A stretch of 64,000 nt of DNA from an uncultured Poribacteria bacterium. Lineage in GTDB: Bacteria > Poribacteria > WGA-4E > WGA-3G. Below, piece by piece: positions 39,001 through 42,000 of the stretch; within the stretch, counting starts at the first letter, position 1; every line of letters begins with the position of its first letter. A program made the position numbers. The stretch spans positions 4,672,001 through 4,736,000 of the forward strand of contig OX638351.1 of NCBI GenBank assembly GCA_951813565.1. The letters run 5' to 3'.

Positions 39001-42000
39001 TTGTGCAGCAATAACAACAATTGCAATTGACCCAATGAGTTTAAAAAGTGTAACAAACGTCCTAGACCCATCCGGTTCTGTTTCTTCATCGTGTTCAGAA
39101 GTAGGTGTTATTGAACCTGCCCATCGGATAGACTGCCAGATATACAACCCTAACAGCACAACAAAGACGAATCCCATAAATTGTGAAAGTACACCGCCTT
39201 GTTTAAAAACTTCCATCGGGGAAGACCAAGGAAAACAGGCTAACACCATGAGAATTCCGGCACTTACCTGAACATTGGACAACCGCGATGCCAATTCACG
39301 GTTAAAAGACAGTGGTGCAATCAGCGATGCTAATCCTAAAATTAAACCCGTATCACATATAATTGAGCCAACAGCATTTCCGAGGGCGAGTCCCGGCTCT
39401 CCTTGGACTGCCGACAGCACGGAAACCGCAGCTTCGGGCGTTGTTGTGCCGATACTCACAATTGTTGCACCAATAACCGCCTCACCTAAGCCCCATCGGG
39501 ATGAAAGCACCACTGCTTCATCTACTAACCAGTCCGCTCCTTTGCCAAGTGTGTAAAGCATCACTGCAACGATAAGAAAAAGGACTACGCTCGGTAATCC
39601 TACAATAAGTTGTTCAATCCAATGTTCCATTAACTATAAATGTTCCTTCCAATCTGAAGATTATATAGACAAAGGTTATCACAGACACCGCACAAAGTCA
39701 AACAATAGTCCTATGTTTTTTAACTTGAAATTGTGGGTACGAAGATGGTATCCTTGTACTATCAATATGGGGGTGAAAGGATTCGACGGAGGACGAAAGC
39801 GTGGTTGCTTTCAATTTTCTCCGGATGTGGGTTCAATTCCCACCACCTCCATTTGAGTAAGTTGCCACACTTCAACTGATTGCTTCCCTCGCTTCCAACA
39901 CCTTCGCAACAACTGGATTTTTATACAGATACTTGGCTCAGAAAATGCGTATTTTGTGGATAGAATTGAGGTTAGATATGAATAGACGTATCTGTGTTTA
40001 TATCAAATATGATAACATTTCACTTTGCGAATTTGCAATGTGATTTGAGTGTAGGGGTTTCTTATGGCGAAATTCGGAGAGTGTTATCTTGTAGATAGAT
40101 TTATGGTATGGTTACGAAAAAGAAGAATGGACAATCTAACCTGATTATGATGGGCTTTTGCAGTCCTCAAAAAAGTTATTTGGTTTGTAATATTGGGTTC
40201 ATGACTTGCTAGAGATCAAAAACTCAAGTCGTATCTGAATGTTGAAGCACCGCATCAAGCTGATCCATCACCTTGTGAAATGCTTCAACGTAATAAGACA
40301 TCAACTCAAGGTCGTTGGGCGGATTAACATCAAAGATGTAGCAGTGAGAGTCAATGAATTCAACGGCTTTAGGATAGTCCTCAGTCTTGTATTCAATAGT
40401 CGATTGATTGCATCGCCACGGGCAGCCTGTGCCGTAACCGATCCGGTTCTGGAAAATCTCTTGAGATGGGACAGGGAGTCGCTGCCACTGTCCAGATGGA
40501 ACACCCTCAGCGCGTAGCGCCGTTTGTATCTTCTCGCGCAAGGTCCGTGCAGGAATATCTAATCCCAACGCCTCTGGATTGAAACCGATGACATAGTTGT
40601 AATAAACGGGTTCGCATTCTTTTGGGGTAACAGGCGTCTCGATGCCATCAATTTCACTTAGATGTTCCGTGAGATAGTGGCAATTCTTGATTCGCATTGC
40701 ATTGTTCGCATCAAGCCGCTTGAGTTGGCTACGGATAAACGCTTGACTGAACATATCCCCACGATACATCCATCCGAGTCCATACGCGTTGTATTCCTGT
40801 TCCTCGCGTTCCCTACCCGGTACGACGATCTCCCCAAAATACTGCAACAACGCTGCGTGCTTGTAAATTTGCTCATCATCCGTTGTGAACAAACCGCCTT
40901 GACAACCGCTACTCAACGTCTTTGAGGCTTGGGTGCTATACCCCGCCGCGTCTCCGAACGCGCCGCAAGGTTTACCTTTATAATGTGCGCCATGTGCCTG
41001 CGCGACATCCTCAATTACTTTCAGATTATGTTTTTTTGCAACCTCCAGAATCGGATCCATATCGGCAGGCATACCGTGAATATGAACTGGCAGAATCGCG
41101 CGAGTCCGTTCGGTGATTTTCGCCTCAATCTCATTGGGATCAATACAATAGGTTACAGGGTCAATATCAACAAAGACAGGAATAGCGTTGTGATGGAGGA
41201 CGGCTGCTGCCGTCGCCCAGAAAGTGAAGGCGGGAACAATAACCTCATCGCCCGGTTCAATACCGACACCCGCGACACACAGATGCAACGCAGCGGTCCC
41301 ACTGTTGACGGGGATACAATACTCAACACCCATGTATTCCGCCCATTCCTTCGCGAGACCTTCGGATTGAATTCGTTGCTGTTCAGTAATTCTTTCGGAT
41401 GCGATAACCTCGGCAATCGCGTCCCTATCAGATTGGGTAACCTCTGGCCACGGTTGAATTAATCCATTAGGGACAGTCTTTTTTCCACCAGATATAGCGA
41501 GTTTTGCTGCCATGAACGACCTCCTTATATAGAGGTATATGTACGCTACGGTGCAGTAGACTCATAGATGCGTGATCGCCTTTGGAATCCGCTTTAAAAC
41601 TTCGTTTCTACCGAGCAGCACGACAATATCAAAAAGACTCGGTCCGAACGAGGTCCCCGTTAGCGCAATCCGCAACGCCTGCATCGCCGCGACGCGTTTG
41701 ATGTTGTTCTCGTCTGTATACTTCCAAATTGCGGTTTCAATCGTTTCTATTTCAAACGTAGGGATTTCTTCCAAAATCTGTCCGAGATTTGTCAGAATCT
41801 CACAAGTTTTTTGCTTCTTCTCATCCGAACCTCCCCACCATTTCTTAACCGCTTTCGGTTCATACGCAAAGTCATCCATAAAGAAGTAGCGAGTCTGTGG
41901 AACAATATCTTGGAATGTTGTGAGCCGTTCACCCACTGCCTCAACTATTTCCTCAAGCCAGTCGCGTTTTGTAGTGGAATCCACCAAACCTTCTTGTTCC

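Follow-up and report, generated by a model that had tools for sequence, protein, structure and literature searches.

tmRNAs reduced to the tRNA-like domain (TLD) are already known. According to the available text of the two sources, a 'TLD only' tmRNA has been published for Mycobacterium phage DS6A (tmID 11587) (PMC4131195, PMC11915505), and tmRNAs without a coding sequence (CDS-less) have been published for mitochondria and two plastids (PMC11915505). As far as the same text goes, a similar TLD-like molecule, chargeable or not, strongly inhibits Escherichia coli tmRNA, perhaps by titrating SmpB (PMC4131195, PMC11915505, citing Mao et al. 2009), and the CDS-less mitochondrial tmRNA, which is retained with SmpB, is argued to still assist with incomplete mRNAs (PMC11915505). 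Tag-less tmRNAs have so far been regarded as peculiarities of organelles and one phage. Here, we analyzed a gene of this kind (mini-tmRNA) in a sponge symbiont, Candidatus Poribacteria bacterium (genome G000). The class itself is known; what is new is a vertically inherited TLD-only tmRNA on a bacterial chromosome alongside a complete tmRNA. No published report of a chromosomal TLD-only second gene was found in the literature searched, a scope that mostly excluded subscription journals.

Identification of a TLD-only tmRNA gene

The mini-tmRNA gene is 83 nt long and lies at positions 39769-39851 (+) of the window, which is the whole 64,000-nt stretch of DNA analyzed. The sequence and the start at 39769 given in the first-pass annotation were retained, whereas its end was moved by one nucleotide because the discriminator A is 39851 and 39852 belongs to the flank (83 nt, not 84). 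A cmscan search of the window placed the Rfam tmRNA family RF00023 at 39769-39854 (+) with 64.4 bits (gathering score 47, E 2.5e-23), and the gene thus passes the curated covariance-model cut-off. ARAGORN called neither a tRNA nor a tmRNA in the window. Both the Rfam score and this silence had been noted before and were reproduced here. The match spans model positions 1-374 with ∼304 of them skipped, that is, both ends of the RNA are matched and the middle is jumped. When the locus was searched against all of Rfam, RF00023 alone was returned, with only the best match reported among overlapping families of one clan. The elements of the locus are as follows (window positions):

38593-39630 (-), Na+/Ca2+ exchanger gene, divergent upstream neighbor outside the RNA (PF01699)
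39725-39730 (+), -35 box TTGAAA; TTGAYA in most relatives (promoter scan)
39746-39759 (+), conserved box TGGTATCCTTGTAC, comprising an extended -10 (TGg TATCCT, 39746-39754) and the beginning of a short leader (promoter scan, alignment)
39769-39775 (+), 5' strand of the acceptor stem, GGGGGUG, with G3 of G3:U70 at 39771 (fold)
39776-39786 (+), tmRNA-type D-loop stretch AAAGGAUUCGA, part of it under the Rfam tmRNA consensus GGaUUCGAC (cmscan, high posterior probability)
39787-39793 (+), 5' strand of helix 2, CGGAGGA, paired with 39817-39823 (fold, pair counts)
39795-39812 (+), hairpin GAAAGCG-UGGU-UGCUUUC, replacing the mRNA-like domain and all pseudoknots (fold)
39817-39823 (+), 3' strand of helix 2, UUCUCCG (fold, pair counts)
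39827-39843 (+), T arm GUGGG-UUCAAUU-CCCAC (cmscan, fold, pair counts)
39844-39851 (+), 3' strand of the acceptor stem, CACCUCC, and the discriminator A (sequence)
39872-39916 (-), remnant (∼45 nt) of the 3' end of a pyridoxal phosphate (PLP)-decarboxylase-like gene, here called gene X (22-locus alignment)

The tRNA-like domain is present, with a 7-bp acceptor, G3:U70, the discriminator A and the T arm. The mRNA-like domain of a standard tmRNA is missing, as there is no resume codon, tag reading frame or in-frame stop codon. The earlier description of the anatomy (7-bp acceptor with G3-U, discriminator A, tmRNA D-loop, helix 2, hairpin and T arm) therefore holds, and so does the statement that no tag frame exists, on which the sequence, the stretch skipped by cmscan and ARAGORN all agree. 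The sole stop triplet within the RNA is UGA at 39774-39776, at the junction of acceptor and D-loop. Pseudoknots PK1-PK4 are absent, and a 28-nt center with one hairpin lies between the two strands of helix 2. A canonical tRNA-Ala was also considered and rejected, since the RNA has no anticodon arm or normal D arm and ARAGORN is silent; the host tRNA-Ala genes reach ∼31-32 bits against RF00023 and differ in appearance.

Structure and promoter

The minimum-energy fold consists of the acceptor (7 bp), helix 2 (7 bp), the hairpin (7 bp, loop UGGU) and the T arm (5 bp). Its energy is -35 kcal/mol (z -3.35), and only 1 of 200 shuffled sequences folded equally well. Across the 23 distinct sequences aligned, the G3:U pair and the discriminator A were found in every one, and six of the seven acceptor pairs did not vary, the terminal G1:C being unpaired in a single sequence. 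The D-loop stretch, whose motif is the canonical GGAUUCGAC, varied only at one A/U column and, in two sequences, by a 1-nt insertion. Two-sided changes were seen in three of the seven pairs of helix 2 (one of them being A-U in 15 sequences but U-A in eight) and in two of the seven hairpin pairs, around a UGGU loop that was constant throughout; in the T arm, a U-A pair is replaced by C-G in three sequences. The junction of helix 2 and T arm reads GAU here; most of the genus has GAA. The gene does not encode CCA and is followed by TTT, and the tmRNA of the host and two of its tRNA-Ala genes likewise lack an encoded CCA.

The promoter scan identified TTGAAA and TATCCT with an 18-nt spacer and a TG ahead of the second hexamer. 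The cTTGAtATTGTG block of the -35 region is kept across the 22-locus alignment. From this spacing, transcription is predicted to start ∼7-8 nt upstream of the mature 5' end. Among the sequencing runs listed, none is recorded as RNA; of four runs compared with the locus, coverage came solely from the two of unrecorded type that contain the stretch and not from the two presumed to be RNA, a result that speaks neither for nor against transcription.

Conservation and distribution

Intact copies occur at one syntenic locus in 21 of 39 other genomes of the genus (86-99% identity), a count that replaces the 17 of 29 full-length copies given earlier, and the 22 genus copies score 63-71 bits against RF00023. 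Mean pairwise identity was 0.91 for the RNA, compared with 0.66 for the promoter region and 0.61 for the sequence upstream. The spacer downstream reached 0.46 and adjacent coding sequence 0.82. In the alignment of 23 distinct sequences, 98.7% of pair cells were paired and six of the 26 pairs carried two-sided changes; compensatory changes had been noticed by the first-pass annotation as well, which counted four. None of 500 shuffles matched the observed pairing or covariation, and controls slid along the alignment gave 44-67% pairing. Both strands carry short open reading frames (23-48 aa) that overlap the region. A coding explanation was rejected, since conservation begins and ends with the RNA and the substitutions compensate one another within pairs.

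Five genomes of one clade (support 100/99) hold only a decayed remnant at the identical spot, with 73-80% identity where alignable, the GGG of the T stem destroyed and the 5' half missing. This true decay shows what neutral decay looks like here, and the intact copies are unlike it. The earlier opinion that the gene is not a decayed copy and is kept by selection is borne out by the kept promoter, the synteny, the 91% identity of the RNA against 46-66% in the flanks and the compensatory changes. The gene has been lost at least three times within the genus and is therefore dispensable. The mini-tmRNA is an old RNA gene, under purifying selection yet dispensable. These data show a structured RNA gene with its own conserved promoter, inherited vertically at one chromosomal locus and repeatedly lost.

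In the whole phylum, the mini-tmRNA was found in 23 of 176 genomes. The previous finding of no full-length copy in 71 genomes of other genera of the phylum did not carry over to this larger set: G069, which belongs to another family, has two full copies and one 5' fragment, the copies adjoining a type I restriction gene and lying between cas6 and cas1, and G049, also outside the genus, has a 105-nt variant (66.9 bits). Separately, it was observed that the genus has dispersed 71-nt tRNA-like cassettes with G3:U70, which lack GGAUUCGAC and the GGA junction.

With regard to the neighborhood, gene X (PF00282) is the conserved convergent neighbor in relatives; 36 of 40 genomes carry it, and in the present one it is deleted. 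The Na+/Ca2+ exchanger gene lies upstream in 15 of the 22 mini-tmRNA loci and another gene in the other seven. Since the mini-tmRNA is kept despite the deletion of gene X and the differing upstream gene, it is independent of its neighbors. In one genome (G036), a 415-bp insert lies within the 3' end of the mini-tmRNA, with a 25-bp duplication of that end on its flanks, and short inserts separate the RNA from gene X in three others (G027, G033 and G035). No integrase was seen at the mini-tmRNA loci, and no extra copy of the 3' end was found elsewhere in the host genome. An island scar, in which the 3' end of ssrA is duplicated as attL/attR, was rejected because both halves and the promoter are present, the neighbors are housekeeping genes and the 3' end is not repeated elsewhere in the genome; the first-pass annotation had excluded such a scar too, and the two halves, promoter and neighbors agree with it.

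Origin and the host trans-translation system

The true tmRNA of the host is encoded at C1:2195363-2195715, carries the tag ADQELALAA and lies 30 nt past the sole smpB (C1:2194919-2195332), which confirms its placement beside smpB in the earlier record. No second smpB was found in the genome, nor was an ArfB-like gene with PF00472; the two genes with an RF-1 domain are both of RF1/RF2 size. Thus, no known factor is in sight for releasing a peptide from the mini-tmRNA, should it accept one.

When compared with the tmRNA of the genus itself, the mini-tmRNA is identical at 23 of 26 positions at the 5' end and at 28 of 37 at the 3' end. Its acceptor (7/7) and GGATTCGACGGAGG equal those of the tmRNAs of the genus, and the helix 2 start CGACGGAGG is common to both, occurring in only 1 of 119 unrelated mini-tmRNAs. 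The match of the 5' half therefore speaks for a local origin and, at the level of sequence similarity, shows that the mini-tmRNA derives from the genus's own tmRNA. The central hairpin resembled the interior of the true tmRNA no more than expected by chance, as 383 of 500 shuffles scored equally high.

Relatives in phages

The architecture of the mini-tmRNA was found in at least 120 viral contigs. A gene was assigned to the DS6A-type TLD-only plan when helix 2 begins at the C of GAC and the total length is 64-92 nt, and the Poribacteria gene follows this plan, with acceptor, tmRNA D-loop, helix 2, 3-nt junction and T arm in standard order. The DS6A gene was located at JN698994 28478-28560 (43.2 bits); neither the Rfam gathering score nor a T-loop regular expression recovered it, and it was found under an E-value threshold alone. 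Among the 116 unrelated members that were parsed by script, helix 2 was 5 bp or longer in 96, the T stem had 5 bp in 114 and the junction was GAC, GAA or GAT in 95; a MAFFT-based covariance model (R1) kept 10 base pairs, owing to staggered 5' ends, and was not used. In all 26 long viral records, the mini-tmRNA was the only strong tmRNA match, and none encoded SmpB. Such phage RNAs would thus depend on the SmpB of the host, if they bind SmpB.

When the 84-nt sequence was compared with 50,697 phage records by BLAST, nothing matched, although BLAST is too blunt for such short RNAs. With the mini-tmRNA of a Mycobacterium MAG, BLAST returned nothing but a 31-nt att-like stretch near an integrase in one Moorella phage. 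A pattern specific for the Poribacteria sequence matched none of the viral contigs, and thus no phage source was found for it.

Possible roles of the mini-tmRNA

Judged from its sequence features, the mini-tmRNA is most likely charged with alanine, bound by SmpB and in competition with tmRNA. The transcript, with its short leader, would be trimmed at its ends by RNase P and 3' nucleases, and CCA would be added as on the host tRNAs. Alanyl-tRNA synthetase could then charge it via G3:U70 and A73, and the single SmpB of the cell would bind it via the GGAUUCGAC / GGA(A/U) platform. The charged RNA might compete with true tmRNA for SmpB, EF-Tu and stalled ribosomes. Lacking a resume codon, a tag and a stop codon, it cannot complete trans-translation. 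The net effect might be that degradation tagging is damped or bypassed through SmpB titration, with at most one untagged alanine transferred. We put the chances at about even that the gene is a functional, separately transcribed TLD-only paralog of tmRNA, with the parts that act as a tRNA kept and those that act as a message gone, and that it competes with tmRNA. Against it stand the cost to be expected of a constitutive SmpB sponge, the dispensability of the gene, which has been lost at least three times, and the absence from the genome of any known factor to release a peptide if the RNA accepts one. In addition, the constant UGGU loop is not accounted for by an SmpB sponge and hints at another partner.

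The same anatomy would also fit a productive rescue without tagging, in which the alanylated RNA enters stalled ribosomes with SmpB and accepts the nascent chain, and drop-off with peptidyl-tRNA hydrolase, or an unknown factor, resolves the complex. By analogy with the proposal for CDS-less mitochondrial tmRNAs, proteins would then be freed without a degradation tag. A helper would explain long retention in the cell more readily than an inhibitor would, and the mitochondrial RNA kept with SmpB is argued, in the available text, to be helpful for incomplete mRNAs (PMC11915505). However, a complete tmRNA and SmpB are already at the disposal of the cell, no ArfB-type hydrolase was detected by PF00472 in the genome, no stop codon lies past the D-loop and the sole experimental hint published, as far as the available text goes, is one of inhibition (PMC4131195, PMC11915505). 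We therefore regard this explanation as unlikely. It is also conceivable that the RNA acts outside trans-translation and uses its alanine acceptor and constant hairpin loop but not SmpB, for example, by donating alanine to a non-ribosomal transferase or by serving as a decoy or sensor in phage-host conflict. The conserved hairpin and UGGU loop, unexplained by SmpB binding, the dispersed 71-nt cassettes and the position of the G069 copies beside restriction and cas genes point in this direction. Such a role appears improbable, since the most conserved single-stranded part is the tmRNA-specific GGAUUCGAC with the GGA junction, which the cassettes lack, and no transferase or defense gene is linked across the genus, the neighbors being an ion exchanger and a PLP enzyme.

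We see very little probability that the RNA itself has no role, the gene either being kept mainly as a landing site (attB) where elements integrate or simply being a slowly decaying duplicate. The insert with its 25-bp duplication in G036 and the short inserts toward gene X in three genomes would suit a landing site, but conservation and compensation span all 83 nt and the promoter, beyond the 3' 25-45 nt used by integrases, and neither an extra 3'-end copy in G000 nor an integrase at the loci was found. As for slow decay, the sequence decayed fast wherever constraint was truly lost, as in the remnants of the five genomes.

Returning to competition with tmRNA, a wider proposal may be offered tentatively, although we consider it rather doubtful: a cut-down tmRNA might serve as a cell-owned regulator or an alternative rescue arm that is charged with alanine and depends on SmpB, handles stalled ribosomes without tagging or sets the level of free SmpB, and makes a second contact through UGGU. 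If true, a large class of tag-less tmRNAs, almost entirely unannotated and otherwise phage-borne, would thereby gain its first member from a cell. The gene has long been retained in a free-standing bacterial lineage alongside a complete tmRNA-SmpB system. It provides a concrete RNA for asking what a message-less TLD does at the ribosome (SmpB sponge, tmRNA competitor or tag-free rescue), and the congeneric genomes with an intact, decayed or absent gene form a natural comparison set. As this case shows, such genes clear the Rfam cut-off for tmRNA, and they could therefore be misannotated as ordinary tmRNAs or overlooked.

Comparison with known systems

The tRNA-like-domain fragments engineered by Gutmann in 2003 and Bessho in 2007 are said to have been used for SmpB co-crystal and ribosome work, and reportedly could be charged and bound SmpB. 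They have the same design as the mini-tmRNA (acceptor, T arm, D-loop and capped helix 2) but are laboratory constructs. The acceptor, D-loop, helix 2 start and T arm are nearly identical to those of the genus's own standard tmRNA (SsrA, RF00023), which has ∼260 nt more, including the resume codon, tag reading frame, stop codon and all pseudoknots. In the available text of PMC11915505, the mitochondrial tmRNAs of jakobids and oomycetes (RF02544) and the ∼65-bp plastid tmRNAs of Mallomonadaceae resemble it in having a TLD, no tag frame and a retained SmpB; these organelle RNAs are the sole tmRNA and usually circularly permuted, whereas the Poribacteria copy is a second gene in standard order.

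The mini-tmRNA also resembles the tmRNA of phage DS6A, which has ∼80 nt, an acceptor with G3:U70, a D-loop ending in CGAC, a helix 2 closed by a ∼20-nt insert and a T arm, and neither a tag frame nor pseudoknots. The inner element is different. DS6A and most phage copies have an A-rich stretch and a CCGCAYGCGG element, whereas GAAAGC in the Poribacteria hairpin (GAAAGCG-UGGU-UGCUUUC) is present as the stem of a longer hairpin with a differing loop, the A-rich plus CC...GG motif being our own description rather than a published criterion. The Poribacteria copy reaches 64.4 bits and has the canonical GGAUUCGAC, compared with 43.2 bits for DS6A. Finally, the DS6A copy is phage-borne and unannotated in its record, whereas the Poribacteria copy is chromosomal, syntenic throughout the genus and accompanied by a complete tmRNA.

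Structure and genomic context of the mini-tmRNA

The genome under study (G000, a single contig of 5.43 Mb) contains one copy of the full tmRNA gene (tag ADQELALAA), located 30 nt after its single smpB. A separate gene for the tRNA-like domain of tmRNA alone, hereafter the mini-tmRNA, is found in the window together with the following features:

39769-39851, + strand, mini-tmRNA, sequence GGGGGUGAAAGGAUUCGACGGAGGACGAAAGCGUGGUUGCUUUCAAUUUUCUCCGGAUGUGGGUUCAAUUCCCACCACCUCCA
Upstream of 39769, + strand, mini-tmRNA promoter, sigma-70-type (TTGAAA, 18 nt, TG-extended TATCCT)
39872-39916, remnant of gene X (PLP-decarboxylase-like, PF00282): the 3'-terminal 45 nt or so, the rest being deleted in G000

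The Rfam tmRNA family (RF00023, cut-off 47 bits) matched the mini-tmRNA from end to end (64.4 bits, E 2.5e-23) with approximately 304 model positions skipped, and the predicted fold of the mini-tmRNA alone comprised an acceptor stem (7 bp), helix 2 (7 bp), a hairpin (7 bp) with the loop UGGU and a T arm (5 bp). Thus, the anatomy proposed in the first-pass annotation, a tmRNA stripped to its tRNA-like domain, was confirmed. The folding energy was -35 kcal/mol (z -3.35), and an equally good fold was obtained in 1 of 200 shuffles. Both the G3:U70 pair and the discriminator A were present; CCA was not encoded, as was also the case for the full tmRNA and two tRNA-Ala genes of the host. Because no stop triplet occurs apart from a UGA where the acceptor meets the D-loop, the mini-tmRNA has no tag frame. 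No Rfam family other than tmRNA matched within window positions 30000-50000, and ARAGORN made no calls over the window.

Both promoter boxes were kept in relatives, as cTTGAtATTGTG and atGGTATCCTTGTAT, and their spacing would leave a leader of about 7-8 nt before the mini-tmRNA. The locus is syntenic in the genus: a divergent Na+/Ca2+ exchanger gene lies upstream in 15 of 22 loci, and the convergent gene X ends about 20 nt downstream in most of them. The mini-tmRNA was intact in G000 despite the deletion of gene X. Gene X itself could be found in 36 of the 40 genomes of the genus; in G000, roughly 300 nt of unassigned, non-coding DNA (39917-40223) lie between its remnant and a DegT-type aminotransferase gene.

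Distribution, selection and loss

Of 176 genomes in the phylum, BLAST identified the mini-tmRNA in 23: G000, 21 of the 39 other genomes of the genus (full length, 86-99% identity) and G069, a genome of 7 Mb from a different poribacterial family that is rated 15% contaminated. All copies in the genus scored 63-71 bits against RF00023. G069 has two full copies (L086 1501-1582 and L084 1501-1583), one between cas6 and cas1 and one beside a type I restriction-enzyme gene, as well as one fragment; one copy lacks the G that opens the acceptor stem. A 105-nt variant (66.9 bits) was present in a genome of a further family (G049). In three genomes of the genus with 81%, 95% and 84% completeness (G001, G012 and G013, respectively), the best RF00023 match was the mini-tmRNA and a full-length tmRNA was not found, likely due to assembly gaps.

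Mean pairwise identity was 0.91 within the mini-tmRNA but fell to 0.66 over the 65 nt before it, to 0.61 beyond these and to 0.46 in the downstream spacer; the coding end of gene X had 0.82. Among 23 distinct sequences (21 from the 22 genus copies, G000 included, and two from G069), standard pairs accounted for 98.7% of pair cells, and 6 of 26 pairs showed two-sided changes (21 cells, which are sequences and not events, the gene X tree mapping the changes to a handful of events). Neither the observed pairing nor the observed covariation score was reached by any of 500 shuffles, and slid partners, used as a control, gave 44-67% pairing. Promoter, synteny, identity above that of the flanks and two-sided pair changes all bear out the earlier view that the mini-tmRNA is a selected RNA gene and not a scar.

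Five genomes in which BLAST detected no copy (G008, G019, G021, G031 and G032) have a recognisable wreck of the mini-tmRNA beside gene X. These wrecks had 73-80% identity over 41-62 alignable columns, with the T-stem GGG mutated and the 5' half gone. In the gene X tree (a single gene, midpoint root), the five genomes grouped together as a single clade (support 100/99) surrounded by lineages that keep an intact mini-tmRNA, and the trace-free genomes required three further changes. Therefore, the mini-tmRNA is old in the genus, conserved where kept, and dispensable. It decays quickly once constraint is lost, and the wrecks serve as a built-in neutrality control.

Origin

The acceptor stem (7/7) and GGATTCGACGGAGG of the mini-tmRNA are identical to those of full tmRNAs of the same genus, and tmRNAs from another poribacterial family deviate at these sites. 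CGACGGAGG occurred in 1 of 119 unrelated mini-tmRNAs among the matches listed. Compared with the full tmRNA of G000, 23 of 26 positions were equal at the 5' end and 28 of 37 at the 3' end; the central hairpin had no match inside the full tmRNA (383 of 500 shuffles scored equally high). This likeness to the genus's own full tmRNAs places the origin of the mini-tmRNA in the ssrA of this lineage, with loss of the middle, either directly or via a phage of the lineage. A pattern scan revealed no viral contigs with this poribacterial sequence type.

Possible function

The best-conserved parts of the mini-tmRNA are the alanine identity pair, the discriminator, the T arm, the GGAUUCGAC stretch and the GGA junction, and all tmRNA parts for resuming and ending translation are absent. 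Since the parts serving as a tRNA are the most conserved and those of the message are gone, the mini-tmRNA is most likely an alanine-charged, SmpB-bound competitor of tmRNA, every step of which we infer from sequence. It would be processed and receive CCA as host tRNAs do, be charged by AlaRS and be bound by the cell's single SmpB. In this way the full tmRNA would face competition for stalled ribosomes, EF-Tu and SmpB, and degradation tagging would be lowered or bypassed.

Several points count against such a competitor. A constitutive sponge should carry a fitness cost, the mini-tmRNA has been lost several times in the genus, the invariant UGGU loop plays no part in competition, and a PF00472 search detected no ArfB-like release factor in G000. 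The mini-tmRNA might instead carry out productive tag-free ribosome rescue, or have a tRNA-like role independent of SmpB. It might also be retained as an integration site, for which a 415-bp insert in G036, lying between copies of a 25-bp duplicate of the mini-tmRNA 3' end, can be cited; however, such retention does not account for selection acting on the promoter and the helices or on the 5' half.

Other elements in relatives

The G036 insert (L024 1584-2020, in the mini-tmRNA 3' end and directly after the gene on G036:C1) has no protein genes and shows a direct duplication at its flanks, inverted termini and repeated GTCCCTACGGGAC hairpins. Similar hairpin repeats occur in G029 upstream of gene X, beside a tRNA-Ala(CGC) 3' fragment joined to the trailer of a 71-72-nt tRNA-like cassette. 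Such 71-72-nt tRNA-like genes are dispersed in relatives (L039-L049; for example, G009:C58:4906-4976 and G034:C1:2008625-2008696; RF00023 33-48 bits), with up to four copies a genome, between ordinary host genes and in some cases near transposases; none was seen in G000. Each combines a G3:U70 acceptor (GGGGGUG or GGGGGAG, with an AGGGGUG start in one copy) with a shortened D region, an anticodon-like loop that varies and, usually, a T arm of the tmRNA type. They are preceded by a gTATAAT promoter, and their complementary leader and trailer (aaccgYcaaacac/gtgtttgRcggtt) are followed by a T run. ARAGORN called none of them a normal tRNA.

Comparison with known tmRNAs lacking a message

An entry in Hudson et al. 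2014 (PMC4131195) reads 'Mycobacterium phage DS6A (TLD only)', that is, tRNA-like domain only. A passage of the same paper, citing Mao et al. 2009, describes strong inhibition of tmRNA by a molecule of this sort, whether or not it can be charged, and names SmpB titration as a possible cause. Nawrocki et al. 2025 (PMC11915505) mention CDS-less mitochondrial tmRNAs, two plastid tmRNAs of roughly 65 bp and two bacterial groups possibly without tags. We located the DS6A gene at L264 28478-28560 (JN698994), where the GenBank record has no annotation; its 43.2 bits are under the Rfam cut-off of 47, and it was therefore overlooked by routine annotation. DS6A also codes for an RtcB-like RNA ligase (gp76).

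A motif pattern (tmRNA 5' and 3' ends at most 52 nt apart) gave 54 loci, of which 24 are from Poribacteria, in 32.2 million genome contigs and at least 120 loci in 2.9 million viral contigs. Among the matches listed, 116 of 119 distinct non-poribacterial sequences parsed into the mini-tmRNA plan, with helix 2 of at least 5 bp in 96 (96 different strand sequences), a T stem of 5 bp in 114 and an inner hairpin with 3 bp or more in 88; G3:U70 was set by the pattern and hence is not evidence. Also among the matches listed, 14-15 of 48 viral loci had tRNA genes no farther than 1.5 kb away; the 26 long viral records, of which 11 are at least 90% complete, all had the mini form (51-81 bits, 68-89 nt) as their only strong tmRNA match, and none of them encodes SmpB. 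The 29 non-poribacterial genome loci had terminase or capsid genes in 3, ordinary cellular neighbours in 4 and flanking ORFs all without a Pfam match in 15.

A TLD-only tmRNA of 81 nt is shared, together with homologous flanking sequence, by three Nostoc species (L056, L065 and L080) and may be a second cell-resident case; in L056, a tRNA with anticodon CUA (ARAGORN 'tRNA-Pyl') lies about 125 nt away and an aldehyde dehydrogenase gene adjoins. An uncultured Saccharibacteria MAG has a 70-nt TLD-only gene (L064 1501-1570) about 570 nt from smpB; ARAGORN found no tmRNA in this 3-kb locus, and the gene might be the MAG's sole tmRNA. In Microvirga lenta (L052 and L063, two copies sharing their flanks), a standard-order tRNA-like domain of 88 nt opens a stretch called a permuted tmRNA by ARAGORN (tag ANDNVDMGAVRLAA).

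The class of TLD-only tmRNAs is thus already published, barely explored and mostly viral, and the poribacterial mini-tmRNA is set apart from it by being cell-owned, old and under selection.
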